DNA of 64,000 nt. Source: Bispira polyomma. Its lineage: Eukaryota. The DNA is taken from the NCBI GenBank assembly GCA_965649765.1, contig OZ287753.1, positions 70,060,001-70,124,000 of the forward strand. The letters run 5' to 3'. Shown one piece after another: positions 5,771 through 57,035 of this stretch. How positions within the stretch are numbered: the first letter of the stretch is position 1; the number at the start of each line of letters is the position of its first letter. The notes beneath the pieces are model-generated. The model did not search any database. It had not been told where the DNA came from and saw only the letters and a program-made list of their open reading frames with translations. Made by a program: the position numbers and the translations under genes.

Positions 5771-8637
5771 AGTAGAAAACAGCCTTAAGGAATGGCAGTT
5801 TAGGGTGATCTTAGGTGTTTCAAATTGCATGTACCCACGAATATACAAGGTATTGCATATAGGAAAGGCTATAACAACATGGGCCCAACTGGCTCCGGGT
5901 GGATTCGGACATTCCAAAACACCGGCAAAAGTTTTTGTCGTCACCCCTGGAGACGTTACAAGTAGTCTTAGGTGTTTCAAATTGCATGTACCCACGAATA
6001 TACAAAGTATTGCATATAGGAAAGGCTATAAGAACATGGCCCAACTGGCTCCGGGTGGATCCGGACATTCCAAAACCCAGGAAAAAATTTTGTCGTCACC
6101 CCTGGAGACGTTATAAGTAGAAAACAGCCTTAAGGAATGGCAGTTTAGAGTGATCTTAGGTGTTTCAAATTGCATGTACCCACGAATTATACAAGGTATT
6201 GCATATAGGAAAGGCTATAACAACATGGGCCCAACTGGCTCCGGGTGGATCCGGACATTTAAAAACCCCGGCAAAAATTTTGTCGTCACCCCTGGAGACG
6301 TTACAAGTAGAAAACAGCCTTAAGGAATGGCAGTTTAGGGTGATCTTAGGTGTTTCAAATTGCATATACCCACGAATACAAGGTATTGCATATAGGAAAG
6401 GCTATAACAACATGGGCCCAACTGGCTCCGGGTGGATCCGGACATTCCAAAACCCCGGCAAAAATTTTGTCGTCACCCCTGGAGACGTTACAAGTAGAAA
6501 ACAGTCTTAAGGAATGGCAGTTTAGGGTGATCTTAGGTGTTTCAAATTCCATATACCCACGAATATACAAGGTATTGCATATAGGAAAGGCTATAACAAC
6601 ATGGGCCCAACTGGCTCCGGGTGGATCCGGACATTTAAAAACCCCGACAAAAATTTTGTCGTCACCCCTGGAGACGTTACAAGTAGAAAACAGCCTTAAA
6701 GAATGGCAGTTTAGGGTGATCTTAGGTGTTTCAAATTGCATGTACCAACGAATATACAAGGTATTGCATATAGGAAAGGCTATAACAACATGGGCCCAAC
6801 TGGCTCCGGGTAGATCTGGACATTCCAAAACCGCGGCAAAAGTTTTTGTCGTCACCCCTGGAGACGTTACAAGTAGTCTTAGGTGTTTCAAATTGCATGT
6901 ACCCACGAATATACAAGGTATTGCATATAGGAAAGGCTATAAGAACATGGCCCAACTGGCTCCGGGTGGATCCGGACATTCCAAAACCCCGGCAAAAATT
7001 TTGTCGTCACCCCTGGAGACGTTACAAGTAGAAAACAGCCTTAAGGAATGGCAGTTTAGGGCGATCTTAGGTGTTTCAAATTGCATATACCCACGAATAT
7101 ACAAGGTATTGCATATAGGAAAGGCTATAACAACATGGGCCCAACTGGCTCCGAGTGGACCCGGATATTCCAAAACCCCGGCAAAAATTTTGTCGTCACC
7201 CCTGGAGACGTTACAAGTAGAAAACAGCCTTAAGGAATGGCAGTTTAGGGTGACCGTAGGTGTTTCAAATTGCATATACCCACGAATATACAAGGTATTG
7301 CATATAGGAAAGGCTATAACAACATGGGCCCAACTGGCTCCAGGTGGATCCGGACATTCCAAAACCATGGCAAAAATTTTGTCGTCACCCATGCAGACGT
7401 TACAAGTAGAAAACAGCCTTAAGGAATGGCAGTTTAGGGTGATCTTAGGTGTTTCAAATTGCATGTACACACGAATATACAAGGTATTGCATATAGGAAA
7501 AGCTATAACAACATGGGCCCAACTGGCTCCGGGTGGATCCGGACATTCCAAAACCCCCGCAAAAATTTTGTCGTCACCCCTGGAGACGTTACAAGTAGAA
7601 AACAGCCTTAAGGAATGGCAGTTTAGGGTGATCTTAGGTGTTTCAAATTGCATATACCCACGAATATACAAGGTATTGCATATAGGAGAGGCTATAACAA
7701 CATGGGCCCAACTGGCTCCGGGTGGACCCGGATATTCCAAAACCCCGGCAAAAATTTTGTCGTCACCCCTGGAGACGTTACAAGTAGAAAACAGCCTTAA
7801 GGAATGGCAGTTTAGGGTGATCTTAGGTGTTTCAAATTGCATGTACCCACGAATATACAAGGTATTGCATATAGGAGAGGCTATAACAACATGGGCCCAA
7901 CTGGCTCCGGGTGGATCCAGACATTCCAAAACCCCGGCAAAAATTTTGTCGTCACCCCTGGAGACGTTACAAGTAGAAAACAGCCTTAAGGAATGGCAGT
8001 TTAGGGTGATCTTAGGTGTTTCAAATTGCATATATCCAAGAATATACAAGGTATTGCATATAGGAAAGGCTATAACAACATGGGCCAAACTGGCTCCGGG
8101 TGGATCCGGACATTCCAAAACCCCGGCAAAAATTTTGTCATCACCCCTGGAGACGTTACAAGTAGAAAACAGCCTTAAGGAATGGCAGTTTAGGGTGATC
8201 TTAGGTGTTTCAAATTGCATATACCCACGAATATACAAGGTATTGCATATAGGAAAGGCTATAACAACATGGGCCCAACTGGCTCCGGGTGGATCCGGAC
8301 ATTCCAAAACCCAGGAAAAAATTTTGTCGTCACCCCTGGAGACGTTACAAGTAGAAAACAGCCTTAAGGAATGGCAGTTTAGGGTGATCTTAGGTGTTTC
8401 AAATTGCACATACCCAAGAATATACAAGGTATTGCATATAGGAAAGGCTATAACAACATGGGCCAAACTGGCTCCGGGTGGATCCGGACATTCCAAAACC
8501 CCGGCAAAAATTTTGTCGTCACCCCTGGAGACGTTACAAGTAGAAAACAGCCTTAAGGAATGGCAGTTTAGGGTGATCTTAGGTGTTTCAAATTGCATGT
8601 ACCCACGAATATACAAGGTATTGCATATAGGAAAGGC
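5771..8637 (+). repeat. 189-bp satellite array, left arm (forward orientation)
   Basis: About 15-16 near-identical monomers; two shortened monomers (deletion at caagtag|tcttagg, ~5960 and ~6870) lie 911 bp apart. Confidence 0.97.
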
Positions 8638-11600
8638 CAAAATTTTTGCCGGGGTTTTGGAATGTCCGGATCCACCCGGAGCCAGTTGGGCCCATGTTGT
8701 TATAGCCTTTCCTATATGCAATACCTTGTATATTCGTGGGTATATGCAATTTGAAACACCTAAGGTCACCCTAAACTGCCATTCCTTAAGGCTGTTTTCT
8801 ACTTGTAGCGTCTCCAGGGGTGACGACAAAATTTTTGCCGGGATTTTGAATGTCCGGATCCACCTGGAGCCAGTTGTGCCCATGTTGTTATAGCCTTTCC
8901 TATATTCAATACTTTGTATATTCGTGGGTATATGCAATTTGAAACACCTAAGATCACCCTAAACTGCCATTCCTTAAGGCTATTTTCTACTTGTAACGTC
9001 TCCACGGGTGACAACAAAATTTTTGCCGGGGTTTTGAATGTCCGGATCCACCTGGAGCCAGTTGGGCCCATGTTGTTATAGCCTTTCCTATATGCAATAC
9101 CTTGTATATTCGTGGGTATATGCAATTTGAAACACCTAAGATCACCCTAAACTGCCATTCCTTAAGGCTGTTTTCTACTTGTAACGTCTCCAGGGGTGAC
9201 GACAAAATTTTTGCCGGGGTTTTGGAATGTCCGGGTCCACCCGGAGCCAGTTGGGCCCATGTTGTTATAGCCTTTCCTATATGCAATACCTTGTATATTC
9301 GTGGGTATATGCAATTTGAAACACCTAAGATCACCTTAAACTGCCATTCCTTAAGGCTGTTTTCTACTTGTAACGTCTCCAGGGGTGACGACAAAATTTT
9401 TGCCGGGGTTTTGGAATGTTCGGATCCACCCAGAGCCAGCTGGGCCCATGTTATAGCCTTTCCTATATGCAACACCTTGTATATTCGTGGTTATATGCAA
9501 TTTGAAACACCTAAGATCACCCTAAACTGCCATTCCTTAAGGCTGTTTTCTACTTGTAACGTCTCCAGGGGTGACGACAAAATTTTTGCCAGGGTTTTGG
9601 AATGTCCGGATCCACCCGGAGCCAGTTGGGCCTTGTTGTTATAGCCTTTTCTATATGCAATACCTTGTATATTCGTGGGTATATGCAATTTGAAACACTT
9701 AAGGTCACCCTAAACTGCCATTCCTTAAGGCTGTTTTCTACTTGTAACGTCTCCAGGGGTGACGACAAAATTTTTGCCGGGGTTTTGGAATATCCGGGTC
9801 CACTCGGAGCCAGTTGGGCCCATGTTGTTATAGCCTTTCCTATATGCAATACCTTGTATATTCGTGGGTATATGCAATTTGAAACACCTAAGATCACCCT
9901 AAACTGCCATTCCTTAAGGCTGTTTTCTACTTGTAACGTCTCCAGGGGTGACGACAAAATTTTTGCCGGGGTTTTGGAATGTCCGGGTCCACCCGGAGCC
10001 AGTTGGGCCCATGTTGTTATAGCCTTTCCTATATGCAATACCTTGTATATTCGTGGGTATATGCAATTTGAAACACCTAAGATCACCTTAAACTGCCATT
10101 CCTTAAGGCTGTTTTCTACTTGTAACGTCTCCAGGGGTGACGACAAAATTTTTGCCGGGGTTTTGGAATGTTCGGATCCACCCAGAGCCAGCTGGGCCCA
10201 TGTTATAGCCTTTCCTATATGCAACACCTTGTATATTCGTGGTTATATGCAATTTGAAACACCTAAGATCACCCTAAACTGCCATTCCTTAAGGCTGTTT
10301 TCTACTTGTAACGTCTCCAGGGGTGACGACAAAATTTTTGCCAGGGTTTTGGAATGTCCGGATCCACCCGGAGCCAGTTGGGCCTTGTTGTTATAGCCTT
10401 TTCTATATGCAATACCTTGTATATTCGTGGGTATATGCAATTTGAAACACTTAAGGTCACCCTAAACTGCCATTCCTTAAGGCTGTTTTCTACTTGTAAT
10501 GTCTCCAGGGGTGACGACAAAATTTTTGCCGGGGTTTTGGAATATCCGGGTCCACTCGGAGCCAGTTGGGCCCATGTTGTTATAGCCTTTCCTATATGCA
10601 ATACCTTGTATATTCGTGGGTATATGCAATTTGAAACACCTAAGATCACCCTAAACTGCCATTCCTTAAGGCTGTTTTCTACTTGTAACGTCTCCAGGGG
10701 TGACGACAAAATTTTTGCCGGGGTTTTGGAATGTCCGGGTCCACCCGGAGCCAGTTGGGCCCATGTTGTTATAGCCTTTCCTATATGCAATACCTTGTAT
10801 ATTCGTGGGTATATGCAATTTGAAACACCTAAGATCACCTTAAACTGCCATTCCTTAAGGCTGTTTTCTACTTGTAACGTCTCCAGGGGTGACGACAAAA
10901 TTTTTGCCGGGGTTTTGGAATGTTCGGATCCACCCAGAGCCAGCTGGGCCCATGTTATAGCCTTTCCTATATGCAACACCTTGTATATTCGTGGTTATAT
11001 GCAATTTGAAACACCTAAGATCACCCTAAACTGCCATTCCTTAAGGCTGTTTTCTACTTGTAACGTCTCCAGGGGTGACGACAAAATTTTTGCCAGGGTT
11101 TTGGAATGTCTGGATCCACCCGGAGCCAGTTGGGCCTTGTTGTTATAGCCTTTTCTATATGCAATACCTTGTATATTCGTGGGTATATGCAATTTGAAAC
11201 ACTTAAGGTCACCCTAAACTGCCATTCCTTAAGGCTGTTTTCTACTTGTAATGTCTCCAGGGGTGACGACAAAATTTTTGCCGGGGTTTTGGAATATCCG
11301 GGTCCACTCGGAGCCAGTTGGGCCCATGTTGTTATAGCCTTTCCTATATGCAATACCTTGTATATTCGTGGGTATATGCAATTTGAAACACCTAAGGTCA
11401 CCCTAAACTGCCATTCCTTAAGGCTGTTTTCTACTTGTAACGTCTCCAGGGGTGACGACAAAATTTTTGCCGGGATTTTGAATGTCCGGATCCACCCAGA
11501 GCCAGCTGGGCCCATGTTGTTATAGCCTTTCCTATATGCAATACCTTGTATATTTGGGGGTATAAGCAATTTCAAACATCTAAGATCTCCCTAAACTACT

Positions 11601-12511
11601 ATCCTTAAGGTTGTTTTCTACATATAATGTCTCCAGTGGTGACAGCAAAATTTTTGCCGGGGTTTTGGAGTGTCCGGATCTACGCGGAGCCAGCTGGGCC
11701 CATGTTGTTATAACCTTTCATTTTTGCAATACCTTGTATATTGGGGGGGTATATGCAATTTCAAACATCTAAGATCACACTAAACTGCCATCTTTAAGAT
11801 TGTTTTCTACATATAACGTCTCCAGGGGTGACAGCAAAATTTTTGCCGGGGTTTTGGATTGTCCGGATCCACCCGGAGCCAGCTGGGCCCATGTTGTTAT
11901 AGCCTTTCCTATATGCAATATCTTGTCTATTCAGAGGTATATGCAAATTCAAACATCTAAGATCACCCTAAACCACCATCCTTAAAGTTGTTTTCAACAT
12001 ATAACGTCTCCAGGGGTGACAGCAAAATTTTTGCTGGGGTTTTGAAGTGTCCGGATCCACCCGGAGCCAGCTAGGCCCATGTTGTTATAGCCTTTCCTAT
12101 ATGCAATACCTTGCATATTGGGGGGTATCTGCAATTTCAAACATCTAAGATCACCCTAAACTGCCATCCTTAAAGTTGTTTTCAACATATAACGTCTCCA
12201 CGGGTGACGGCAAAATTTTTACCGGGGTTTTGGAGTGTCCGGATCCACCCGGAGCCAGTTAGGCCCATGTTGTTATAGCCTTTCCTATATGCAATACCTT
12301 GTATATTGGGGGGTATATGCAATTTAAAACATCTAAAATCACCCTAAACTGCCATCCCTTAAGGTTGTTTTCTACATGTGACGTCTCCAGGGGTGACGGC
12401 AAATTTTTGCCGGGGTTTTGAAGTGTCAGGATCCACCCGGAGCCAGTTGGGCCCATGTTGTTATAGCCTTTCCTATATGCAATACCTTGTATATTCGGGG
12501 GTATATGCTAG
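8638..12511 (-). repeat. 189-bp satellite array, right arm (inverted), with 752-bp higher-order repeat
   Basis: Reverse complement of the left-arm monomer. Diagnostic variants recur every 752 bp (9631/10383/11135). Monomers beyond ~11500 are more diverged. Confidence 0.97.
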
Positions 12512-34820: not shown

Positions 34821-37800
34821 ATTATTATTATTATTATAGATTTGTAACGCGCTTTATTGATGCTAGGCATCTTCTAAAGCGCAACAGCAGAATCATTAGT
34901 CCAATCATTAAGTCCATGGAAATTGTAAAGTCGTAAGGAGGGAAGCGGGAGCGTGCACGAGGAAAGCTAAGGTGGGTAGGCAAGATTAAAAAGATAGGTT
35001 TTAAGCTTTTTCCTAAAACCGATAAGTGTGTCAACTGATCTGAGGTCAACTGGGAGACTGTTCCATAACCGTGGAGCTGCAGTGGAGAACACTCTGAAAC
35101 CCGCCTTTCTGATTGGTCTGACCGAAGTGACGGAGAGTCTGTTGCCTATCTTGCAGTTACTGAAGGAAAGAAGGGAGGCAAGGTAGGGTGGCTGTTGAGT
35201 GACTACAGCCTTAAAAGTGGTAACGTGAATCTTAAACAAAATTCGAGATTTAATGGACAGCCAGTGTAATTTTTTGAGGTAAGGAGTGACGTCTGTGCGA
35301 CAACCCAGGCGAAAAATGACCCTACATAGGTAGTTTTGGATGGACTGGAGCTTTTTAATGTGTGACTTGTTTGCTCCGTACAAGAGAGAATTGCAGTAGT
35401 CGAGGTGGCTACTTACAAGGGCATTTGCCACAGTTGTGTCCATGGACAAGTGCTTTCTGATTCTTTTGATGTCGCGTATGTGGTAATAGCAGGAGCGACA
35501 GATGTTGGCAATATGAGTATCGAACAAAAAAGCTGAATCAAAAGTGACACCCAGGTTTTTAGCATTTTCGGAAGGTAGTATGTCTTTTCCCAGCAGGGAG
35601 ATGGGAAACAAAGATTTTAGGAGTTCACTGTTTTTCTTGTTTCCTATGAGGATGAATTCTGTTTTGTCAGGGTTGAGCTTTAGTTTGGAGTAGTTCATTC
35701 ACGCCTGGACTTTAGACAGACAGTCTGCAAGTAGGTCTATGTTAGTATTTGCATTTTGTGGATTGAGGGAGAGATAGACTTGAGTGTCATCTGCATACAT
35801 GTTATGTTTTATATTGTGTTTATTTATGACAGTGCTGAGAGGATGTGTATAAAGGGTGAAAAGTAGAGGGCCAAGGATGGATCCCTGGGGTACTCCATAA
35901 GGTAGCTTTATGGACGATGATAGGTGATCATCTAGTTTAATTCTTTGTGCCCTAAGAGTAAGGTAGGATTTGATCCATTTAAGGGCACTGCCATTTATAC
36001 CAAACCACTGCTTGAGAGTGTCGCAGAGCAGGACATGATCAATAGTGTCAAATGCAGCTGAGAGATCCAGAAGGGTGAGGGCCACTGTGTCATTGCAGTC
36101 CAGTGCAAGATTGATATCATTGCTAATGGAAAAAAGGGCACTTTCTGTAGAGTGAAATTTTCTATAAGCAGACTGGTGGCGATTTTCAATGTTTTGTCTA
36201 TTAAGGTGGTCAGAAATTTGTTTAGCTACAGCTTTTTCGATAACTTTTGAGACGAAGCTGAGGTTTGACACCGGTCTGTAGTTTTTTAGCTGGTTTTTAT
36301 CAAGCCCTTGTTTTTTAATCAAGGGAGTTACATTTGCCGTCTTGAAACAGGTGGGAAAAACACCATCCCAAAGAGAAAAATTTAATATATTTGTTATGGG
36401 TGTGACAAGAATGACAAGACATTGACTCAGAATAACTGCTGGGATGGGATCTAATTCACAAGATTTAATCGTAGAGGATTTGATGAGTTTCAGAACTTCA
36501 AGCTCTGACAATGTACTAAAATGAAACAGGTTACAAACCTTATATCCTGGGGCTGGAGGATATAAGTGATGTATCGTTGGGAAGGCGTCACGAATGTTGC
36601 TGATTTTTTCTATAAAAAATTTTCCAAATTTTTCTGCTAAAAAAGTAAGGCAGTGTTTACTTTCTCTGATGTTTGGTGTAGAATTTTGTTTATGGAGGCC
36701 CATAACCTTTTGGGATTATCCTGATTTTCAGCGATGATGGAGTCGTAATGTTGCTTTTTGGCATCAGTTATTAGCCTGTTGTAATTATTGGTGGGGATAC
36801 GGTAACGGCTTCTGTCTAAGAAGGATTTTGTGCGTCGCCATTGACACTCAAGTTGTCGTTTGCGTCTTTTGGCCTCTGTAATGGCGTTGTTGGTCCATTC
36901 ATGGGGGTTGGTTTTGGGAAGGGTTTTAGATACCCATGGCGCATGTTTATCTAGGACAGTAGAAAGGCAGTGATTGTATTGTAAGCTAAGGGTTTCAGCA
37001 TTTTTGCATGGATGTTTGATGAGATTAGTTTCCAGGATATCGTCTCTAAATATGTTGATATTGATTTTTCTGATGTTTCTGTATTTTATGACACAAGGTT
37101 TATGTGAGGCAGGTATTGGTAAATTTAAATAGGGAAAGGTTGCTAGGTGATCGGAAATCCCATCAGTTACCCATGATTCTCTGATGAGATTTGAATTTGG
37201 TCTTGCGATTACCAGATCGAGTATGTGATTGTGGATGTGGGTTGAAGTGGAGATAAACTGTGAGAACCCAAAAGTGTCAAGGAGGGTGTTGAAATCTTTT
37301 GTCGTAGTATTTTCTATGTCGACCTTGATGTTGAAATCACCAAGGATGATAGTTTAAAATGGGAGAAGGTTAAGGGTCTCTAGGAATTCGGAAAACTCTT
37401 GAGTAAAAGCAGTTAAAGAAGGGATGGGTGGTCTGTAAAAGGAGGAAACTAGGAATGAATGATACCCATTTGAAATTTTGCATGAAATGTGTTCGAAAGA
37501 CGAGTAGGACAAGTTTTTTAGAATTTCACAGGAAAGGGTATTTTTCACAAAAATGCCAACTCCTCCCCCGCGTTTGTGCAACCTGGGAAACTGTAGAAAT
37601 TTGCCTTATTCCGCAAGGAACGGGCATTAAATGCACCGATCTTAAGCATGGATACTGGGGGGCCAGGATTTATGCTGACGTTTCCGCAGAGAGCGGTCAG
37701 CAGAGGGATCCACATACTGTTAAAGGTGTGAAAAGTGTTAAAAAAAGAATTTGTATAGTTATTATCATTAATGTATGTAAAAGATATTTTAAAAGAATGA

Positions 37801-37960: not shown

Positions 37961-38020
37961 AATCCAATCTATCTGGCAGATATCGAGCTGGGGTTCATAA
38001 CATCAAATTTCAGATAGGGT

Positions 38021-38215
38021 AGTAGTATAGAATGAGCAAAGCACCCCCGCACACATGCTGTTTATGTGCAGGTTGTCATGGCAACCAAGTTTGCTAGGGT
38101 GGTTGCTATGGTGATGTGATAATTAGTCGCAAGTGATCCAACTAATCGTCGCAAAGTGTGCGACAAATAGTCGCAAACTGTGCGTCGATTTGTCGCAAGC
38201 AAAACGTCACAAGGG
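38021..38215 (+). repeat. Polinton left TIR plus GTCGCAA subterminal repeats
   Basis: ~105 bp aligns with the reverse complement of 45320-45423, followed by gtcgcaa motifs. Confidence 0.9.
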
Positions 38216-38234
38216 GCATTAACGTTTCTTTATT

Positions 38235-38870
38235 TAGAGATATCTCCGTCAATACTGGATGGATTTTAATGTGTTAAAGCTTGGATTGTGATCTTTAATG
38301 TGGTATAAATTATGTTCTTGTAGTGTACATAGTCATAGAGTTATAGCCGTTTAAATAAAAATATTTTCGTGAATTCTGATTTTATTAAAACAAGCCAAAA
38401 AATAGCTATGTAACATAGACGATATATCACAGAATACTTGATGCATTTTGATGCAATAACTACTGTCAGAAAGCATATACTCTGGGTGTGAATATTATAT
38501 AAGATATGTATTTATAGAGTATATAGTGATTGAGATATAACCGTTTGGAAATATCTTGTATGTTCTGATTTTTTGTTAAAACATACAAAACATAGCTATA
38601 AACATAGACGATATCTCACACACTACTGGGTGGATTTTAATTAAATTAAATCAAAAGCAATGAACAGCACTGGATCTGGGCTAGCTTTAAAATGGTATAA
38701 ATTATGTATGTATAGATATGTAATACTCACTGAGATATAACCGTTTACAAATATCTTATATTTTCGTGAATTCTGGTTTTTGTGTTAAAATATGCAAAAT
38801 ATGCAAAATATGGCTGTGTAACGTATAAGATATCTTACAGACTTATCAATGGATTTTGATGCAAATCAAC
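38235..38870. repeat. Four diverged ~180-220-bp tandem units inside the Polinton
   Basis: gatat(c/a)...gatggatttt starts at ~38238, 38420, 38610 and 38829. Confidence 0.7.
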
Positions 38871-38968
38871 AGTATTGAAAAGCACTAAATCTGTTTATTT
38901 AAACTGTTTATTTAAACATTATCATAACATTCATTCTATTTACAACACTACAACATTTTTGATAACGT

Positions 38969-39250
38969 TTATTTTCTTTCAAAATAGTATCTTTCTTCAT
39001 CTTCCAACACATTGGCTCTCACTCTCATATTCTCAGGTATTTCCTGTTTGAGATTGATTAGCAAATAGCTGTAGGGTCCCAAGGACATCACTCTGTCATA
39101 CACCTGGTCCATATACTCTGGATCTTTGGGGTACATCTGTCTGGCTAAATTTTTAATCTGACTGGCATCTCGGGGATTCTTGAACAGTATCATATAATGC
39201 GTATTCAAGCTGATTGTTCTCTGGTATTTACTTTGGTGAAACACATTTGA
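38969..39250 (-). pseudogene. Polinton packaging ATPase (FtsK/A32-like), C-terminal part only
   Basis: NVFHQSKYQRTISLNTHYMILFKNPRDASQI..PYSYLLINL; Walker A/B absent. Confidence 0.9.
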
Positions 39251-39296
39251 ACATTTGAAAGTTTATAGTAGACTTTGTAGTTCCACTGTATTCATC

Positions 39297-40628
39297 TTAC
39301 AGAGTGAAACCGGTCACAACGTCTCTGTAACGGTCAATTTCAATGGTGTTTTTCAAATTCTCCAAACACAACAATATTCACAGTTTCTGTTAAAGCTTTC
39401 TTAAAATGGAGTCCTAGAGCAACTGTGCCAGTTTTCTCAAGTTGACATAACCTTTCCCTTCTTCTAAATCGGGTGATAAATCAAAGCATATTAATGTATA
39501 ACCCTTTTTATATTCTACTCTGTCAATTTGGTTCCCGTTGTCTTAATAGATAGTCCCCATGCCAAATAGAGTCATGCAATTCATGTAGTCCTCTGTCTCG
39601 AAATCTTGTTAGAGTGCCTTGCCAGGAAATGGTGTTCCGCCTACACTGAGCGCAATATGTTCCACATCAAAATGTTCAAACTGGATTGGATTCGTCTTGT
39701 AGGTTCCATTGATGGCACTGTTCTTTAGAAATCCCAACAAAATGCAAGACAAATTTGACCAGAATACAGGTTTTCTTCAGTGTGACTTCTGGTTCCTATT
39801 CCCACGGTAAAGGTTTTGCATTCTTCTCTGGTAATTGGATATTTATCAGTTCCCAGTTCTAGAGCCTTTGCGTGAGCAGCCTGGATTACAGAGCTGAATT
39901 GTACTTTTCTGATTATCATTTTGACACTTTCTTATTTCACCTTGAAGTTGGCACCATCAGTTGGGCTGATAAGACAGAAGTTGTCCTTACTTCTGGTTAA
40001 AGACAACTTCATTGGGGAGTGATTCAGCAGGTAACAATCTTGAAACATCATGGCCAAGTGCAATTTTCCAATCTTGTCCATCAGGCGACTCCCTTTAGTT
40101 AGGTTCTTTCCTTTTTTGTATCCCTCGTTGGTGTCATCCAGGGAAAAGTTGTTGGTGTCTTTGTACCACATCGATGCAGTCAGTTGACTTTCTTTACTCT
40201 CTGTACCAAAACTTAGCAGAGATTCTATATACGCCTTGTAAGGGTAGATGTTGTTGGAGGTGGTCACTAAAATGTCTTTCAACGTGACATCTATCTGACA
40301 GAATAAGGCGTGCAGGCAAAAATTCACTGGAGCTACATCGTCGGCTACTACGGCTGCTGCGTCGCCTGCTGCCGCGACGGCGGTAGCTAAATGCTTGCCA
40401 TTTGCTTTTACAATTTTGACATGAATAAAACTCTTTTTTAGATCATATGTACTCAGAATCTGATAAAAATATTTTAAATTTAATGGTATCACTGCTGTCT
40501 TTCACTGCTGTCACAGGACCATATTCGACCCATTTTCCCTCTTCAATGCTGGTCTGAGTGAGGGGTATAGCAAACAAATCTAACTCCGTTTTTACACACT
40601 CGCAAGACAAGGGGTGAATCAGAGGCAT
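39297..40628 (-). pseudogene. Polinton major capsid protein (double jelly-roll), full span but disrupted
   Basis: MPLIHPLSCECVKTELDLFAIPLTQTSI.., YPYKAYIESLL, AHAKALELGTDKYPITR, C-terminal EFENTIEIDRYRDV. Confidence 0.9.
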
Positions 40629-40631
40629 GGT

Positions 40632-40984
40632 TTAGGAATATATATCTCTTCTTCTCTTTTTTTCTGGGAGGTCCTCTCTGTTTTAACACTTTAGATTGAA
40701 TGACGGGTCTTGCCCGAGGGGCATCCCTTTTATCCCTTTTCAAGTAATCCAGTGCCAAACCTACTCCTGCTGTCAAGGCCTTCTTGCCCAATGATTTTCC
40801 CAATGCAATGGCTCCTTTTTTAACAGAGGTGCAGCTACTTGAACTAGTCCTTTAAACAAGCTACCCAACCTATGACCTCTCTGATACCTTGAAATCCTGG
40901 CAGGCCATTTCCAGCTTGACTTGTAAAATATTCATTGTATGCTTCCCGTGTAGAATTATCGCAGCAGTATTCTTTGTGCTTCAT
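40632..40984 (-). pseudogene. Polinton small basic core/membrane-active-type protein
   Basis: YFTSQAGNGLPGFQG..LGSLFKGLVQVAAPLLKK..basic tail, between the minor and major capsid genes. Confidence 0.75.
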
Positions 40985-41728
40985 ATTTGATGAAAGTGAA
41001 GTGTCACCAATGACTTCCCACCCACAAATGGGATGATTTTACCATGTCGTTCTTTATATTGATTTCTACTGAACCACAGACTTTTCTTATCAATGGATAA
41101 TAGAATACTTGATTGTACGATGTAGTGATAATATGTCCTTTCTGGATAGGAACTATTCTAAGAAGAGGAACTTTTGCGTCTCCCAGTGCCACAGTTTCGA
41201 TCAAATCACAATAGATGTATAGATTGTGTGTGTGCCATCTTAAATGTCGGATGGGTACTTAGATTTTCTATCCCCGGGTAAAAAGGGACCAGTTTTGGCA
41301 AAACCTAGAATTTCATTTAATCTTTTGGAAAGGGTTACTTTGGGCCCTGCCTGTGCTATATTAGCTGCATTATTATGTTCAGTTTTTGTAATCTAAAGTC
41401 TTGTCTTTTGCGTTAATTTAATGGTACTGAACTGCACAGTAGATGGTGGCTCTGCTCCTAACCTCCATTTTACCTTTTTGTTAAAGATTCTGATCAAGTC
41501 TTCCATGTTGTTGTAAATGCCTTCTGAAATAGGAATTTGTGCATCACCCACTTGCAAGAATTCATCTGAGCGGACGTTATGCCATGTTTTTGTGTACTGA
41601 ATTTCCATAAGTCCCACTTCCCATTCGCCAAACAGTTCGCAGGGTTGAGCCAGGGGAACAATATACTCTCCTGGAGTATTCCCCACATGATTTGTATTAC
41701 TCGGTAAGTATACATAGAAGTTTTTCAT
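40981..41728 (-). pseudogene. Polinton minor capsid protein (penton)
   Basis: FYVYLPSN..GEWEVGLMEIQY and NLYIYCDLIETVALGDAKVPLLRIV..VTLHF. Confidence 0.85.
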
Positions 41729-41796
41729 GTTGCAGTGTTTACATCAGTGTTTACAGCAGTGTTCACAGCAGTGTTCACATTTAACTGAATGCATCA

Positions 41797-42530
41797 TCAA
41801 AAGTGTGAGCCTTTGTATACGCTCTCCCATTTATACTTCTTCAATTTTTTTTTCTCTGGTGGTTCCAGCTCTGGTGGTTCCAGCTCTGGTATCATTTCTG
41901 GTTTCAATTCTGGTTCCATTTCTGGGAACATTTCTGGTTCCACTTCTGGGAACATTTCTGATTCCATCTCTGGTGACTGAAACTGAGGTCCCATACCTAA
42001 CAATGAGGCTGGAATATTAGCATATTGTAGCTTTTGAGCAAAATAGGGCCATCCAGTAGGCATTTTTCTTTTTTTTTCTTTGAGTTCGAATGGCTGTGTT
42101 TATTAAATCAGTAATATGTGATCCAGTAATAGGCTGATTTTCAGTTGTCAAAATTTCACCTCTGTGATTCAAACGTAAAGTACCTCTTAACTTTTAATAG
42201 AGACTTTGCCCTTTACTCCGTAAAGATGTAGGCAGTGTTATTTTCAGGTCATCTTCTAGATCTTCTGTTTTACCAAGAGCTTCCAAACGTTTTTGCCAGG
42301 GGAAAATAATGTATCTTTTTGTTGTTGATCATAGGCTTTGATCCGGGTCATTGACTGATTGTACAGTTTCATTTTTTCTGACTGTTCCATATTGGTATTT
42401 TCTAACAGGTCACCCATATCCTTTTCTAATCTGACCATGACTGTAGCGGCCGTCCGTACTGGATGAGACTTATACATTGCTACTTAACAAAACGTTAGGA
42501 ATAACAACCTTTTCAATATATTTGTTCATC
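41797..42530 (-). pseudogene. Conserved Polinton uncharacterised protein with EMFPE/ELEPP repeats
   Basis: GSHITDLI..PTGWPYFAQKLQYANIP..; 12/15-bp coding repeats at 41855-41975. Confidence 0.7.
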
Positions 42531-42534
42531 GTTT

Positions 42535-42883
42535 GAATTATCCAATCAATTTTTCAGCAATGGGGGGAATAATAGTCCATCGTCCATCATCCAGAGTCCC
42601 TAAAATAGGAGCTATCAAGGCTGTTAAGAATCCCCCTGGTTGTATCGTTTTTTCTCCTATTAGAGGTTTGTTTCTTCCTCAATTCTTGGAGTTCTCCTTT
42701 GTACTTTGCTAGTTTTTTCTTTTCTGTTAATCCTAGTGGGATATTTTCTTCAAGTAGATTGTGAGCACACTCAACAAAACAATGAAGGAGAGCTTTGTCT
42801 GCACCATGTATAATATATTTTGTTGCTTTGGAATCACCCTGGGCCATAATTTGTAAAATATATATTTTTTTTACATCAGACAT
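42535..42883 (-). pseudogene. Conserved Polinton small protein
   Basis: ECAHNLLEENIPL..KKKLAKYK..[frameshift] QPGGFLTALIAPIL. Confidence 0.7.
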
Positions 42884-42944
42884 GTTGACAGCATGACATT
42901 TGTCAGTAAAAATGAAGAACAATACTAATATTCCCTTCTGTTTA

Positions 42945-43920
42945 TATTGATATCTTGTGACATCTTTGGCAGGTATCCAGCAAAACTTCTTTAAGTCGTC
43001 CTTTCAATTTTCAGCTCTTTAGAATTTTTTCAACTTTATAATACTCGCTGGCCATGGCTTTTTGTAACTCTTCTTTGTAGAAAGTTCCTTCAATGGATTC
43101 GCCTGCATAATCATTCACTTTGTAGGTAGGATAGCTTTGAGACCAGTCTCTATTCACTATTTTAAAAAGTTCACCACTCCATCTCTGATCATATTCCCTA
43201 CTAAATGTTTTTTTCTGCCATATGATATTCTGACAAGATCCCCATCATTAAATTTAAATTTCTTTTTTCGTGAAATTTTTCTTTGATGGCTCAAGTTATT
43301 CGCCGTCACGTTGGCTGGGGCCATTGTTATCTTGCAACACATCGATGTACCTATGGGTTTGCTTGTGAGTGAAGTATTTGTAAATCTTGCTATTGATGGT
43401 CTTAATAGCTCTCTTAGCGTAATTTGCCTTGACTTCATTTTGTGTCACAAAGTGTCGAACAGAATGTGTTTTGAATAACTGCTGCACTTTATAATCTGTA
43501 AATTCGGCCCCTTTATCAGAGTGGATAGTTTCTGGTATCCTTTCCTAAAAAACCAATGAGAAAGCACGAACAATTTCATCTCCAGATTTGTTCTTCAAAG
43601 GCACTGTCCACACATACCGTGATAATATATCTATGGCTAACAGAACAAAATGGTGATCGTCATTGTATTGGGCAATTTTTGTCATATCCATCAGGTCAAT
43701 ATCCCACTGCTAATCTATACTTCCAGCAATGACTTTGTTTTTTTTAATAGTCCTTCTTCCAGGTTTGTGCAATGTATAAGTCTCCACTTAACCAGGATTT
43801 CACATCTGTTAGGGTTATGGACGGGTCTTCATTTATTGCAGCCTCATACAACTTTTGGGGCCCAGAAAAACTAGCAGGATGGGCAAGTTTAAAGTAAATT
43901 GAAGTAAAAAGTTTGTTCAT
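42945..43920 (-). pseudogene. Polinton retroviral-like (rve) integrase
   Basis: YTLHKP, QWDIDLMDM, AIDILSRY, IHSDKGAEF, YAKRAIKT (third catalytic E read as K), GDLVRIS, WSGELF, IEGTFYKEELQ. Confidence 0.92.
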
Positions 43921-44102
43921 TCTTTCTTCTTTATAGTGGGACTTGGCAGAGCATAACCCAGAGATGAACAGAATAATGTCAACCAAATATCTCTGACTTG
44001 ATTGTTCAAACACAAGTTGACAATGCAGGCCAAGATCACAATAATAACTAAGATTATTTGAGCCACATATTTCACTAAAGATTTTTGACAGACATTATCC
44101 AT
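43917..44102 (-). CDS. Polinton small two-helix membrane protein, 61 aa, intact
   Basis: Hydrophobic ORF with WLTLFCSSLGYALPSP; its TGA overlaps the integrase ATG (ATGA). Confidence 0.7.
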   Translation of the reverse strand: MDNVCQKSLVKYVAQIILVIIVILACIVNLCLNNQVRDIWLTLFCSSLGYALPSPTIKKKE

Positions 44103-45064
44103 CTTGCTTCTTTAAAGTTTGATAAGTAAATGAACTGTGGCGGTTGTAGTGGGAAGTTATATAGGGGTTTTCATGGAAAAACTCAAATTAAAAACATTTG
44201 TTATCCTTTAGGATACACTAGGATACACCATTTTAATAAATTCACAAAAACATCTATTTTCTGACACTTTTTACAGAATGAAAATCGGTGCATGCATGGC
44301 CAAGATATATCTGTTTTAAGATTGGCATATCATTGACACATCATTGACACATCATTGACATATCACTTTTTGGCTCCTAGAAAATCCAAGATGGCCGCTG
44401 AGTGTTAATAGAGTTATTTGTAATATTTGGAACCTTCGATCTTTCTTCTCCTCTTAGCAACCAGAGACATGCTAAACTTCAAACTGTCCCAAATCTAATT
44501 TTCCAAAATCTTCCCGAAAATGACTGATGCTCGGGGGATTTATTATATTTCGGACAATAAGCAACCTCACCTGTCTGATAATAGCCAACCCCACCTGCCT
44601 GGTAATAGGATACCCCTGATTGACATTTAGTGTGCACCTACCCATTATGATAATATGGCACCACCTGACCGGTAATAGGGTACCCCTAACAGGGTATCCC
44701 CCAGGTGTCGTTTTGTGTACACCCAGACAATTTGTTGCAAATTCAAATGTTAAATATATACATATTTTTCCAATAGAAATGCTCACTACACCTACAATCT
44801 TGCCGTTTTTAACCCTAATACAGCAGAGATGAAGATGTTACCTTGCAGCTCGCAATATGAGACTTTCCCTGAGGTTTCAAATAAATTGGTATAAATGTAT
44901 AGAGAAATTGCTCACAGGCACAAATTTTGGTCACTGTCTTGACACTGTCTTTCCCTGAGGCCTGAAAAGCCCGTATATAACACTTCATAGGAAGTTCACA
45001 GATTACGTGACATTTACTTAAAAAAAATGATATCTTACAAATTATAAATAATATATAAATAACA

Positions 45065-45423
45065 GATTCTGCGACGCTTTCTCGCAAATGAACATTTTTT
45101 TTTCTGCAAAAAGTTGTCGCACACCATGCGACGATTTGTTGCACAGCTTGGGACCATTTGCCGCACTGCTTGCGACAAGGTGTTGCACATTCCCATCTAC
45201 AAACAAATCTCCACACTATTCCATGCGACAATCAGTTGCACACCTTGCGACAATTAGTCGCATCACTTGCGACAAATCGTCATATCACTTGCGACAAATC
45301 GTTGCATCACTTGCGAAAAATTGTCACATTGCCACAGCAACCACCCTTGCAACCATGGTTGCCATGGCAACCTGCACCTAAACAGCACATGTGCGGAGGG
45401 GGCTTTGCTCACTCTATACTACT
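45065..45423 (-). repeat. Polinton right TIR plus TTGCGAC subterminal repeats
   Basis: Ends ...ctttgctcactctatactact; multiple tgcgac motifs. Confidence 0.9.
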
Positions 45424-47452
45424 TAGGGTGGCCCTAAGATTACTGTACCCATGCTTCAAAACAACTCACCTATGACGATATGTCACAAGGTCTGTTTGGT
45501 CCCAACGTCTATTAGCTTGTGCCCTAGAGGAAAGAAATTGAAACATACGGAGTAGTAAAACCTGAATGTGGACATAATGTTCCTTTAGATCATTATAACA
45601 TGAAAACCAAAAAAAACATCCACCTTCATCCTAGACATTGTGCAAGGTCCTTCAATGAGGGCATTATGATTTTACAACTATATCCCTGTGTGGATACAAT
45701 AAAATAAAGAAGCTGGCAGTTATAAAAACACTAGTGCTGAACCTTTCTGAGCAGAATAGGAACTTGTAAAATGCAGTCATAAAGTGGTTCACCAACAGTA
45801 AGACTTGTAAGCAAGATATCAAGGTGATATATATGGAAAAGTCAATGATAATATTAAATTTAGTTTGTCAATGCCAAATGTCACTGGTACTAGCATAATG
45901 TGCTGTTATAAGGGTAGTCAATCTGAACTATCATACACATGCTATCATCAGGTTTGTGTCGCAAACTTTCTTTGCAACTCTTGATTCTATTCAGGGACAC
46001 TGTGGATCTATGTACAAAACTGGGATCTTTTCACTGCTGAAATACTCCAGATATTACAACATTATGTCAAGTTATGTTGGTTCCGGTGTAAGTAAAAACT
46101 AAAAGAACTAAAAGAATACAGCAAATAATATTGCTAATCTAGGGTCTAATATTAGTCAAGCCCACAAAACTGACAGTATAAATCCTGTGACAATAACTAT
46201 GTCCTCTTAAATGGTTTTAATGATGACTTCATGTATAGTAGTAGTATTGGCAAAGACATCAGTGATTGTAAAGATAATTATTACGGTACACGCGAAAGCC
46301 ATAATGACACCCGTTGTTCTGACGATGAGAATAATGGGTATCATGAACAGGAACGTTATGATCAAAATTGTAATGCATTGGGAAATTATAATGACACCCG
46401 CGATGTGATCCAAATTACCGGACACAGGAAAATCATAATGTGACCCATTGCTATGATTATAGCAATGGGGGGCGTTGTGATTGTATAGCAAACAATGCAC
46501 GTGTGCAAAATAAAAAAAATGTTTAAAGATTCAATATGGAAAACGTTTCTAGTTTAATGAAAGGATACCAAGTATATGTCATGGTCAGAACAATATTAGC
46601 ATTCATATGGTGTCTAATTATTTAAAAGTGTCTGACATTTTAAGACAATGAATTAATAGAAAATCAGAACACGTGGGAAGATAGCTATCCCCAAAATAGT
46701 ATTTTATATGCATGTTTTAGTCAACTTGATAGCAGCATATATATGTCTGATGGTGATTACACCAATATTGAAAACTCTATAATTAACTACGACACACAGA
46801 TTGGTGTCTATGATAGCATGTGGAAACATGATAGTTCAGTACAGGGTAGTAGACAATCCCCTGATACTTGTTCTAGAATATTGTGTACTTGCTTTGATTT
46901 TAGTACTAGTTTAAGTGATCGTAACTTGCAACGTACTATTTTGTTTTTTGATGTACATATATACTGGGGTCACATTTTTAACTCTAGGCAGATAAAGTCT
47001 GTCCAGAGTTGGTGTATTGGAGAACAAAATTTACCAGTGAAATTTGCGAGGACAGCACTTTCTGTCATTTTACTGCACAAAATGGAATTTTTTTTCTGGC
47101 AATAACCATTAATTGGTGCTCAGCACGGGGCAGTCGATCTTATATTTTTAATCCTTGTCTTATTTAGCTTGAAATATGGATATACAGATTGATCTACTCA
47201 AACTACTGTTGGGTTCCCTATGTAGAAGGCCTGGTTATAGAATGATTTTTATATGTGCAAAACACTAGGTTTGAGGATATATATAGCTATATATACCTGT
47301 TTTACTTCTTTTTTTTCCACATTTTGTACGGCCCGAGTGTATCCAAGGGATCTTTTCATGGCAGAAATACTCCAGACATTATAACATTATGCCCAGTTAT
47401 GTTGGTTCCGGTATACGTAAAGAGTAAAGAATACAGCAAATAAATTCACCAA

Positions 47453-51279: not shown

Positions 51280-51825
51280 TGACTTATAAACATTAACTAC
51301 TAAAATGCCCAAACGCCATGCTAGTATTTTATTGCTATACTATATTTTGTAGAGAACGGGCGACCGAGGCAGAAGCATTGGGGAAAGACTGCAGGTACGC
51401 CCATACAGCAGATAAACGCCAGCCCCCATGAGCCATAATGGCCTGCAGCTCGACGTGGTTATCAAAAGTAAGGGTTGCCCCGGATCGCCTGAAAGAGTGG
51501 AAGCTGAAAGATTGGGGGTTTAACCATAAAGACACAATAAGACACCCGTCTGACCATATAAGCATTGAGGGGGAACAATATTCCATTTTGCTTCACCATA
51601 AACACTGGGGACTCATCATTATTGTTGTTTTTTGCAAACATTTACCTTAATGCTGATACTAGACATAATTAAGGCAATTGCACCACATGATATTGGTTAT
51701 ACTTTTTAAATTTTTAGCCCAACGGAGCACAAAAATTAACCCCTGGAGGGCCCCACACAAAATCTTGACATGTTAAGTGTCTTTCAGGATTGAACTGGTC
51801 AATACTGAAAGGCACTTAATAAATT

Positions 51826-51867
<42 letters not shown>

Positions 51868-54800
51868 AATATACACTTTGATAAACGAAGAAAACAAAAA
51901 AGGTTGTTGTAAATATCTCCTGATACACATATGCATGTGGATATACCTCGGCTTTCTGATTATAGCAGTAATAATTAGTAGAGTGATAATCCCTTTTAAT
52001 CTAGGAGAAAAAGGGGTTGAGATTGATAAGGATCTGAACAATAGTCTTATCTGGGGATGAGATAATACTGCCACTGGAACAGACCACAGTTGAAAGTGGT
52101 GTTTAATTGTGGAGACATAATTTTGAATTGAATAGGGTTTTAAACCCTGCTGAGCCAGGTACTCCACAAACTGCAAAATGTACTGTAAACTAGTAATATC
52201 TGAGATACCCAAAAATATGGCAAATGCCAAGAACAATCTCACATAATTTGAGTAAGCATGCTTTGTTCTCTCGGTTAAAGCATTCTCAAGCCTAGTAGAC
52301 ACCGCCTTCAGAAGGAATTTTACCTAAAAAGCAATTCAAAATTCTTGATTTAGCACGAACTTATCACTACTCACTGATCACCAATTTTTGTCTTTGACTT
52401 CATTATGCACTCTTGCATTACAGTAGCCGGGAAGAAACATACGGGATAAATAATCCGCTTGAATGTTTCTTACTAATGCTATATGAACTATTTCCAATTT
52501 TATGTTCTAATTTACAGATTCTAATTAAATTCAACGAGCCAATATGCCCAAGTTTTTGTCATAAAAATGGCTAGAATTGAAACCTCAGACAACAGCCCCA
52601 TTGTCACACTATATTTTTATGGTGCTATTTATTTGGAAATGCAATATACTCATCTCAGGAGGCTTATCATCCGGAAGAAGGGCAGCACACACATTATCTG
52701 ACCATACAGCCCCAATGCCCTCGAGGGATGCGTCCACATATAAGTCATATATGGGCTCACTTTTTAGATGCATTTCTACAACTCTATTAAATGAAGTTAG
52801 GAATTAGTTAAACCAACTAAGGTCTGACTCAAACTTTCTGGTGAAGTAAATGTTTTTATTTGGGTAAGTTTCCCTGCCGCTGGTGTACTGCCCAAATTAA
52901 CCTGTGATTTATTAGAACATGCAATTGTGATGGTTACAAACATTTTATTAGTAGATTTAATTAAATTATCAATGATGTCCACAATGTGGTCACTGTAAGA
53001 CTGACCATACAATTGGTGACAAGTTTTATCTTTCTGAAACATATAACATTCCTGCCTAGCATGCTGGATTTCTTTATCTGTGTAATTCTTGACACTAATG
53101 TCATTATCCTCAGTTGTATTATGATAATGGACATTTTCCTCACATAAGCTCGAAGGAATGTCAACTATGTCAGTGTGGACAGTTTCCACAATTGAAAGTG
53201 TCTGTATGGGAGCAAAATATAACCATTCTGGCTGTGATCAAATTTTTGGTAATAAGATGCACCAGTTTGCTTATGCAAAAAATTTATGGGTAGGAACAAT
53301 CCAGCATACTCACAAAATGTATACCAAATGGTTATATTAACAGTTGTGCTTGTATCAGTAACCTTTGTATTGGTGTAATTCCATATTTCATTATGTTGGT
53401 TGACCGACATTTTTAAGTCATGATTACTGGTTTTATCTAAAAATGTATGTTGGTAACCTGTGTTGTTTAGACACGTTTTGCCAACACTTTCCCCCACTGA
53501 ATTTACAGTAATGTCAATTTTGTGAGTATTTTTGACCCTCTTACTGGTTTGATTAATGGAGTTACAAATCCCCGTGTCATTTTTCATATTTCTGTCAACA
53601 GTATCATTTAACACATGCAAATTATTACAGTTGTAACATCTATCGGTATCAATCAGTCTGTGTTGATTAAATGTGAGTTCCTTTTCACAATACTTTCCAA
53701 TAACATGACCAGACAAGTTCTGACCAGATTTATTACTAATATTATTATTATCAAACACTCTATCGTTGCTCACTATCTTAATTGTTCGTCCTTTTGGTTG
53801 TTGGTCTACTGCCTACGCGTTGACTTTCTTTTGCTTAACTTGCTTATGCGAGTTAGCTTTGTAGCATTTGAATTCGGGGTGTGAACTGTCTTTCTGTAGA
53901 TTCTGGAAGCAAAACCAGCAATTTTGCTTGTACTAACCATGGTCAGCCTTGTAAGAACATCTGCCCGAATTGAACAATTTACACATGATTTTGCTATCTT
54001 GGCTGTTGTTACCTGAACTGTGAGGGTTTGAACCTTCAAAGCCCATTGTGAACTGTCCTTCCACGAAAGGCGACCCTCCTCTATTTTCATGCATGTGGAC
54101 GGCCCATGCATTTTTTACAACGTGCCATGGCAGGGATGCTGGGTCCTTAAGGGTGGATATGACCTGACGAAGCATTTTGTCTTTAGTGACTGGGTCTGCT
54201 ACTTGTATGACGTTACTAATTTGGCCCGCTGCCGACTGAGGAATTGAAAGCTCGTTAAAGCCGGTTTTTCTTTTGTGAAGCCGTCCCTGTCCAACCTTTG
54301 TTGGCCCACCTACGTGTGGGGTCAGCTGAAGCCACATCTGACAGTTAAACCTGCCCAACATTTGTCGAGTGGGGGGCTTACCTTGCAGAAGGTTGACCCT
54401 GGCAAGGGTTTTGTATTCGGCTAAACGTCTGGTAACTTCTTGCTGCACGTCTGGCAAGGCCTTAAGAACATCTAACGTGGAGACAATCCCACCACGTGTG
54501 AAATCCTGCTAAGTAGGTTTAGTGTGAAACGTGGACTCGACTGCGGTAGCCTGTGGTTGTTGCTGGGTGTAACCAATCCTAGCCGAGGGAGGGGCTGCGA
54601 TTGCGCCTTAACCATCGTTATTGAACAGAGTATCGTCTGCTGTATGAGCAGGAGATCCTAACGGGGTTGAGTTCGTTAAACCCCACGCTTCAATTTTATC
54701 CATCCGTTTGGCCATCTTCACGTTAGGATATGTCAAAGATAGATATATTGGGGATGCAATAAGAATAATTGAAGATGTTATGTATATTACAGATAAAGAA

Positions 54801-57035
54801 AAGTCACCGGGTATTCTATTAGCAGTTGATTTTGAAAAAGCATTTGACAGTATTGAGTGGGTTTTTATTCAAAAAGCTTTACTGTCTTTCAATTTTGGGC
54901 AAGTATTCAGAAAATGGGTGAACATTCTGTATTCAGATATTTACAGTTGCATCATTAATAATGGATTCACATCTGGGTATTTCCCCTTATTTAGAGGAGT
55001 AAGACAAGGAGATCCACTGTCTCCGTATTTATTTATAACAGCAGTAGAAATATTAACGCTAGCCATAAGACAGGAAAAAAGAATACGTGGAGTCAAGATA
55101 AATAATATGGAAATAAAGTTAGTCCAGTATGCAGATGACACCACTGGCATATTATTAGACATTGAATCTGCACAAATTTTTCTCAAAAGACTAAATGATT
55201 TTGAAAAAGTATCAGGTCTTAAAGTTAATATGGAAAAAGCAGAAGCAGTTCTTCTAGGTAATCTTCAAGATAAAGCAAGTGATCAATATTATAATATAAA
55301 TAAAAAATGGTCAAAGGAGCCCTTTAAAATATTAGGGGTGTATTTTTCATACGATACAACTGAAGACAACAATATAAATTTTGGGTCAAAACTTTTAGAT
55401 CTTGAAAAAACACTGAATTTATGGAAAATGAGAAATTTGTCATTAACAGGAAAGGTTTTAATTATAAAGGTACTGGGAGTTTCCAAATTTCTGTACTTGG
55501 CCTCAGTCATATGTATACCACTGTGGGTTGTGGAAAAAATTAATATTTTGACCTACAACTTTTTGTGGGGTAGCTTTAATGATAAAGTAAAGAGGTGTCA
55601 GATGATACAGACATATGAATTGGGAGGTCAAAAGATGCTTGATTTGGAATCTAAAATAGCAGCCCTTCAGCTAAAATGGGTACAGAGATATTTTAGCACA
55701 GGTTGTAATAGTATTTGGAAGGTCATGTTTGAATTTTATTTAAAACAAGAATCAACAGATATATTTATGCAAAGTGAATATGATAATAAGGAATTTAAAT
55801 CTCAGTTAAATCAATTCTATAAAGAAGTTTTATCAAGATGGTCATCTTTAAGATGTAATGAGAATTTCACTTACAAGGAGTTATGTAATTCAATTATATG
55901 GTACAACAAACATATTAAGGTGAATAAACAAACAATATTTTATAAAGAATTTGCTGAAAAAAATGTAATAAAAATTTTTGATATTTTAAATAATGATGGC
56001 AATATCATGACTTTTAATGAACTTTAGAATAAGTTTAACATTAGTTCCAAATATTGGTTCTTATGGCAAAGTCTGGTACATTCTATCCCAGTAAATTGGA
56101 AAACAATGCTCAGGGTTAATGCACAAAGTCTAAAATGTGTAGATAAAACAGAGACACCATATATTGCTATAAATAATACATCATTTGAAATTATTTCAGT
56201 GAAGTCTAAATCACTATATAATGCTTTTGTGAACAAGAAATTACATAATTCAGTTGGTTTGATTAAAAATTCTGAGAAATATGGGCTTGACAGAGATATT
56301 TGGAAAGATATTTTTCTTCTGCCAAGAAAATTAAAAATAGAGAACAAAGTGAAGGATTTGCAATATAAAATAATTCACTGTTGTGTGTCAACTAATAATA
56401 TTTTATATAAAATGAAAATCAAAGCTTTTAATAGTTGTGAGTGGTGTCATTTTCATAAAGAAACTTTGGAACATCTTTTTATTGAATGTAATTCCGTCAA
56501 AAATTTTGGGCTATCAACTCAAGAAATATTAAAAAAAAGTTATCACTTGAGCAGAATTTTATCAGAGAAGGAAATTTTATTTGGAATACTCGAAAGTGAT
56601 CATGAAAATAATATTGTGAATCAAATGAATACAATTATACTTTATGCTAAATATTACATCTGGAAGTCAAAACTAGCAAAAAAACATCCAACCATCAAAG
56701 AATTTAAAAAAACTATGCAATGTTCGTTTGTATATAATAATATTGTTATGTAATAACATTACTTTTATTTTGATGGTTGAATATTTCCAATAGGTGAGTG
56801 TGACAATGTTTGTCCTGTGAAAATTGTTCGCTGTCTTGTGCTGTAAGTGTCCTGTGGAGTCTTTGTGTCCTTTCGTATTAAAAATGTATATCCTGTGGAG
56901 TCTTTTGTCATTTTGTCCTTTTGTATTAAAAAACGTAAATCTAATAACTATAGGTCTTGCTTTTTTAATTGTTAAAGAAAACATGTATTAGTACATTGTA
57001 ATTTGAAGCATTTGTTGGCAAAATAAAAGATTTAC

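Follow-up and report, generated by a model that had tools for sequence, protein, structure and literature searches.

Degraded copies predominate among described vertebrate Maverick/Polinton loci: 96% of 3,511 are degraded, and the intact ones measure 12.7-24.6 kb, with a mean of 16.9 kb (PMC8097293, Barreat and Katzourakis 2021). Insect polintons lacking polB have been described that stayed mobile (Pannagram preprint, 10.1101/2025.02.07.637071), and elements that lost capsid, protease and ATPase together have also been reported (PMC4028283; cited alongside are PMC6431247 and 10.1101/2024.01.15.575659). The subject here is a Polinton copy of Bispira polyomma, located at positions 38021-45423 of a 64-kb window (64,000 nucleotides of contig OZ287753.1, assembly GCA_965649765.1, positions 70,060,001 to 70,124,000, forward strand), to which all coordinates below refer. 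It is a dead, integrated Polinton/Maverick of 7,403 bp, with broken integrase and capsid genes and without the protein-primed DNA polymerase PolB (pPolB). A complete element probably inserted at this site, then lost an internal segment by local deletion and decayed neutrally in the host chromosome. Non-autonomous Polintons, reportedly described by Kapitonov and Jurka in 2006, are said to be shortened, to keep their terminal inverted repeats (TIRs) and 6-bp duplication, and to form multi-copy families.

Both ends of the element start with AGTAGTATAG, and the arrangement (AGT)2//(ACT)2 is the Polinton/Maverick end motif (AGTAGT...ACTACT). The hexamer TAGGGT flanks both sides as a perfect 6-bp target-site duplication (the chance of such a 6-mer match is 2e-4 at the window's composition). 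The TIRs are about 180 nt long and 81% identical over 181 nt; their outer part carries 16 substitutions in 119 aligned positions, a Kimura two-parameter (K2P) distance of 0.149. A preliminary description of the locus had proposed a bounded 7.4-kb Polinton/adintovirus with matched TIRs, a perfect TAGGGT duplication and AATAAA signals followed by repeats. The length, TIRs, end motif and gene set uphold the bounded element, and the duplication and the signals were found as described; the TIRs are present but not identical. Contigs of three sequencing runs (X1-X3, DNA-type, from 2 samples of one study and holding 37-46% of words; no RNA run was listed) were matched to the window at 80% likeness, and their summed depth is not a copy number. 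The terminal and non-coding features are the following.

38015-38020, no strand: left copy of the target-site duplication TAGGGT
38021-38199, plus strand: left TIR, starting with (AGT)2, its inner part made of 22-bp subrepeats
38239-38893, no strand: three ~195-bp subterminal direct repeats, 68-72% alike, non-coding, with near-identical contigs in runs X1-X3
38886-38973, minus strand: AATAAA signals (at 38973, 38912 and 38899, the ~195-bp repeats coming after them) and a 13-bp tandem repeat at the ATPase end
44260-44725, no strand: subterminal non-coding block
45102-45341, no strand: 22-bp repeat array, longer than the array in the left TIR
45244-45423, minus strand: right TIR, ending in (ACT)2
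45424-45429, no strand: right copy of TAGGGT

Genes were placed with profiles built from related loci, and breaks were counted against intact homologues. The names PM, PZ and PW were assigned by position, following PMC8097293. All genes lie on the minus strand, as the proposed co-oriented run required, in the order small membrane open reading frame (ORF), integrase, PM-like, PZ-like, minor capsid, PW-like, major capsid, protease stub and part of the ATPase.

43917-44102, minus strand: small hydrophobic ORF of 61 aa, open, conserved in related loci, 41% identical to the homologue in locus L002 (profile E 4.9e-15)
42981-43923, minus strand: retroviral-type integrase pseudogene with 3 stops and 3 frameshifts (profile E 3.6e-65; rve E 1.7e-4 on one piece)
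42587-42895, minus strand: PM-like gene, named by position, with 0 stops and 1 frameshift
41797-42483, minus strand: broken PZ-like gene with 1 stop and 2-3 frameshifts, its name taken from position in related loci
40984-41737, minus strand: minor capsid (penton) pseudogene with 1-3 stops, depending on the reference, and 2 frameshifts
40635-40987, minus strand: PW-like (core-type) gene, named by its place between the capsid genes as in PMC8097293, with 0 stops and 3 frameshifts
39297-40628, minus strand: major capsid protein (MCP) pseudogene with 3 stops and 4 frameshifts, 77.5% identical to the intact P0003 over 426 codons
39254-39295, minus strand: protease stub comprising 14 codons, one of them a stop, in which 9 of 14 residues agree with the beginning of the family protease in P0073
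39244-39259, minus strand: junction left by the deletion, joining protease stub to ATPase remnant and carrying a perfect 8-bp tandem duplication
38969-39250, minus strand: C-terminal ~92 residues of an A32-type packaging ATPase, 78% identical to P0116 residues 161-252, without stops or frameshifts

The whole element carries about 25 inactivating changes (about 9 stops and 16 frameshifts), and the 61-aa membrane ORF is its only open gene. Integrase and capsid cannot now be produced by the element. The earlier protein assignments stand; they had given little weight to the several stops and frameshifts carried by the integrase and by each of the two capsid genes. The capsid folds are taken from intact homologues, the genes here being pseudogenes: the model of the minor capsid homologue from L007 matches the pentons of mavirus, Sputnik and adenovirus (best E 2.9e-11), pointing to a single jelly-roll, and P0003, the intact family MCP modelled at pLDDT 87, finds its matches among double jelly-roll capsids (best E 8.5e-16). 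The only named capsid match is a scallop protein, at 44%; together with the LINE-type reverse transcriptases around the element, it points to an animal host. The tail of the PZ-like protein is Pro/Glu-rich and encoded by 12-bp repeats. A Pfam search of 16 ORFs of the element gave rve (E 1.7e-4) as the sole meaningful match, and a search of PDB by sequence with the MCP alignment gave 4 chance matches. Judging by motifs, the PM-like and PW-like ORFs may be the adintovirus proteins GasderminX and Cupiennin.

This locus resembles the degraded Mavericks of PMC8097293 in its (AGT)2//(ACT)2 ends, its 6-bp duplication, a TIR within the 46-1,447 bp given there, the gene set int, pm, pz, minor capsid, pw, major capsid, pro and atp, and its stops and frameshifts. 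It differs from the Mavericks in that source in being 7.4 kb long, in lacking pPolB, in keeping all its genes to one strand, where the ATPase comes last and is separated from PM, and in its extra membrane ORF. The PM homologue comes after the ATPase in all ten related loci with an ATPase, which is the place of pm in PMC8097293; since the order here is unlike that, gene orders have been shuffled between families. Autonomous Polintons have open core genes, a length of 13-25 kb (size range from PMC10748475) and pPolB, none of which this element has. The hexon, penton, adenain stub, packaging ATPase and integrase recall the virion module of Beta-class adintoviruses (Starrett et al. 2021, PMC8502044), whereas Alpha and Beta adintoviruses are defined in that source by PolB (OTU-PolB class), which is absent here, and the present element is known from integrated DNA. 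Like the insect polintons of the Pannagram preprint, it is bounded by TIRs, has capsid genes, lacks polB beside the packaging ATPase and probably has complete relatives in the same genome. The insect elements are described there as young, with several similar insertions and transposable-element cargo; the present one is old, has no cargo in the gap, has also lost most of its protease and ATPase, and siblings of it were not found among the relatives fetched.

The absence of a recognisable pPolB, claimed in the preliminary description, was confirmed. The profile search suggested there for MCP, penton and pPolB was carried out, and it placed the capsid genes and did not find pPolB. The best independent E-value from a profile of 32 full-length pPolBs was 3.5 within the element and 1.9 across the window, and three pPolB queries gave zero tblastn matches inside the element. 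The same profile detects pPolB in 7 of 84 related loci, some of them decayed.

The protease and the ATPase meet at a junction where both are truncated. The protease breaks off after 14 codons (39295-39254) and runs into about residue 161 of the ATPase (39247). The family protease, in the tail of P0073, has 143 residues and matches Peptidase_C5 weakly (E 0.0066); the family ATPase, with 252 residues, comprises a zinc finger and an A32 domain (Pox_A32 plus zf-C2H2 in P0116). What is left is thus 14 of 143 residues of an adenain-type protease and 92 of 252 of the ATPase, the latter covering only positions 133-224 of the 226 in the profile, with the zinc finger and the Walker A/B part gone. Since the protease stops at codon 14 and the ATPase resumes at residue 161, at least 387 + 480 nt (~0.87 kb) were deleted. 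The N-terminal C2H2 zinc finger of the packaging ATPase is a trait of this family, seen in the ENA proteins P0116 and P0122. P0345, an ATPase member ending at residue 160 and so adjoining the start of the remnant, was taken as a coincidence.

In the seven related loci that hold it, pPolB follows the protease in four, directly precedes the ATPase in one and lies elsewhere in two. Vertebrate Mavericks hold pPolB and ATPase in one module (PMC8097293), and the fetched protein P0184, judged from motifs, reads from a polymerase-like tail into an ATPase. On this evidence, a single deletion that also took pPolB is the simplest explanation. Judging from these gene orders, pPolB was probably lost in the same deletion as the protease-ATPase interval, and the parent would have measured at least ~11.6-12.1 kb. 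A second candidate site of loss lies at 38890-38970, where summed contig depth drops and the match of one 552-nt contig ends at 38893.

The age of the decay was estimated from substitutions only, because some frameshifts could be assembly errors; columns at least 40% identical among relatives were treated as conserved. Under the standard model of protein-primed replication the two TIRs are identical at insertion, and this was assumed for the Polinton family here. Decay per TIR arm is then 0.067 uncorrected (95% confidence interval (CI) 0.039-0.105) and 0.075 by K2P. Conserved residues are changed at 27 of 246 positions (11%, CI 7-16%), for a simulated d of about 0.05, and 9 of 1,478 codons are nonsense, for a simulated d near 0.07. 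These three clocks agree on 5-7.5% neutral decay, with wide intervals. The ATPase remnant is changed at 6 of 48 conserved positions and the MCP at 21 of 198 (Fisher p 0.80); among 125 highly conserved MCP positions, four intact relatives show 0-2 changes. Changes in the variable MCP columns (75 of 228) represent older, selected divergence. As decay in the ATPase remnant does not exceed that in the MCP, and the TIR and gene clocks agree, the genes were functional until about the time of insertion. Contigs of run X1 differ from the window at 591 of 8,601 positions, and at transition sites the window has A/T for G/C at 209 and the opposite at 136, flanks and family variation being included in both counts.

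Relatives of the element were sought in a protein collection and in the sequencing runs. The closest relatives in the protein collection form a capsid cluster of 106 members and an ATPase cluster of 84, on many large contigs; five compared 435-aa capsid members are 96-99% alike, and intact MCP and ATPase relatives lie once on contigs that are both 50,877 bp long. The ATPase subfamilies (84 and 56 members) pair with the capsid clusters (106 and 82) by contigs of equal size. In run X1, a single exact-match contig has a depth of about 12, against a summed depth of 555-1,201 in the coding part, 152-255 in the left arm and 179 at the right TIR; this suggests tens of relatives, several with the same TIR type. 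Of the 154 proteins fetched, none was a near-identical sibling (the best was 81.5% identical to the window), a piece of protease stood at the start of none of the 30 ATPase relatives, and none of 10 ORFs from the element and the neighbouring LINE had an exact match in the protein collection, a weak test as start codons were guessed. In viral_contigs, P0003 found no family locus and the alignment found 1 distant one. The TIR motif had 0 matches in the 84 fetched loci and 0 in viral_contigs, the host being expected in neither collection. Separately, loci L082 (2080-8287), L083 and L084 have Polinton genes inside contigs filed as bacterial genomes; in L082 the pPolB, capsid and protease genes stand on a 268-kb contig that is likely mis-binned eukaryotic DNA.

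The preliminary description had offered two origins for the short form, a deletion after insertion and a satellite-like form that was replicated and integrated as such. The first is favoured by the agreement of the clocks, by an ATPase remnant decayed to the same degree as the MCP and by the absence of a sibling; the second is disfavoured and appears improbable. Decay with deletion is an ordinary fate for Polintons, and the plentiful intact relatives in the MCP and ATPase clusters favour an ordinary decayed copy. On this reading, a complete Polinton would have integrated by means of its rve integrase, leaving the 6-bp duplication that is observed. A break inside the element, followed by end joining, would have removed the interval from protease to ATPase, and probably pPolB with it. 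Templated inserts have been described for polymerase theta (PMC5068794), and the 8-bp duplication at the junction may be such an insert of host end joining. The 5.1-kb coding span holds 4 duplications of period 8-15, this one included; the chance of one lying so near the junction is estimated at about 2%, which leans weakly to host repair. Point changes would then have accrued to the estimated 5-7.5%.

Several observations weigh against local deletion after insertion. Depth in the TIR bins (152-179, against about 12 per single contig) means that several elements with this TIR type exist, and the protease/ATPase junction may occur at other loci too. ATPase remnants of ~90 residues could not surface, because the ATPase search took in proteins of at least 169 residues. 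The sibling tests would catch young siblings and miss old ones, which at ~75-80% protein identity would resemble ordinary relatives. None of the 120 pPolB matches listed, of 6,004, could be tied to contigs of the family, so as to give its own pPolB and the position of that gene. The clocks, being wide, do not distinguish loss shortly before insertion from loss afterwards. Finally, the LINE beside the element has 4 breaks in 2.76 kb (counted by eye) against ~25 in 5.13 kb for the Polinton (p 0.01), and had the Polinton inserted into a copy of that LINE, part of its decay would predate insertion.

Under the satellite-like origin, a replicating genome would have suffered the deletion; copied by the pPolB of a helper, its short form would have seeded several loci as a non-autonomous subfamily that has since decayed. 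This is an unlikely history. All cis parts are retained ((AGT)2 ends, TIRs and both subterminal repeat regions), which, with the several elements of this TIR type in runs X1-X3, again counts against local deletion, and the mobile polB-less insect polintons described in the Pannagram preprint are a precedent. For the same reason the satellite reading would add no new kind of element. A satellite lineage of long standing is itself unlikely, because TIR decay (0.067-0.075) is not below gene decay (0.05-0.07), albeit with wide intervals, and the ATPase remnant has decayed as the MCP has. The sibling searches among fetched proteins, ATPase relatives and exact ORF matches also speak against it, as does the length of 7.4 kb, less than half the intact vertebrate mean of 16.9 kb, a size argued to be capsid-constrained (PMC8097293). 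With a long satellite phase set aside, what is left is a single burst in which a complete Polinton would have copied, and perhaps also packaged, a 7.4-kb genome deficient in polymerase, protease and ATPase that then spread to several loci. Such a satellite of an animal Polinton, now a fossil, would be marked by a common protease/ATPase junction, and it too seems improbable.

A one-off defective genome, deleted during viral replication, integrated once by its own integrase or that of a co-infecting complete element and never spread, would explain equally well why the duplication is perfect, the ends are intact, the clocks match and no siblings were found. It is nevertheless a doubtful explanation, as a rare event is required, whereas chromosomal deletions had the whole time of decay in which to act, and the 8-bp duplication leans weakly to host repair. 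That the short form or many of the frameshifts are assembly errors, through collapse of a longer repeat copy or errors in homopolymers, is very improbable: no contig bridging the junction or spanning the element occurs among the 24 listed of about 14,200 pieces, and truncation affects many of the near-identical family proteins in the collection, but contigs of other runs agree exactly with parts of both arms (over 382 nt in X1 and X2 and over 313 nt in X3, with 0 differences in each case), so that the arms exist in the samples of those runs, the nonsense codons and TIR differences are substitutions and not indels, and the junction fuses two unlike genes without a long repeat.

Local deletion and decay, the preferred reading, can also be set beside the neighbouring DNA. 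A second Polinton-type end lies at 2310-3144 (plus strand), with the same terminal 10-mer, another TIR body and 50-bp repeats. It is 77-79% like the block at 44260-44725 and interrupts a LINE bearing a reverse transcriptase (RT); its partner end was not found in the window. Since this partnerless end lies 36 kb from the element, broken Polinton copies are common here. The LINE ORF2 at 34967-37723 (minus strand), with endonuclease and RT, has about 4 breaks and very high summed contig depth and looks younger than the Polinton. The possibility that the Polinton lies inside this LINE, and is younger than it, was rejected: loose ends occur at 37723 in 20-21 contigs of X1 and X2, the flanks of the element being otherwise unmatched in the window, and the LINE is likely a later neighbour because its relatives part from the window there, ~300 bp short of the element. 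A contig of X3 joining 37994 to 45448, a hint of an empty site, has a short side of only 24 letters and was not used as support.

Other observations in the window are as follows. A 188/189-bp tandem array at 5966-12508, with 93-96% matches, flips orientation at 8637/8638 and contains long spurious ORFs. One bin of the right arm, 44862-45148, has a summed depth 5-10 times as high as the coding part and shows loose ends at 44941; it may hold a short high-copy host repeat within the element. An Integrase SAM-like domain at 51799-52323 (minus strand) is likely a piece of a DIRS-type tyrosine recombinase, and a LINE with RT and zf-RVT lies at 54648-56753 (plus strand).

Most likely the element is one of many decayed Polinton copies, neat and datable, in a genome that seemingly holds tens of relatives, and as such it matters little. 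A junction common to several loci would provide direct evidence of trans-complementation among Polintons, and of the copying and integration of a genome less than half as large as usual. A shared junction would also bear on the question, raised in the Pannagram preprint, of how polintons without polB move.

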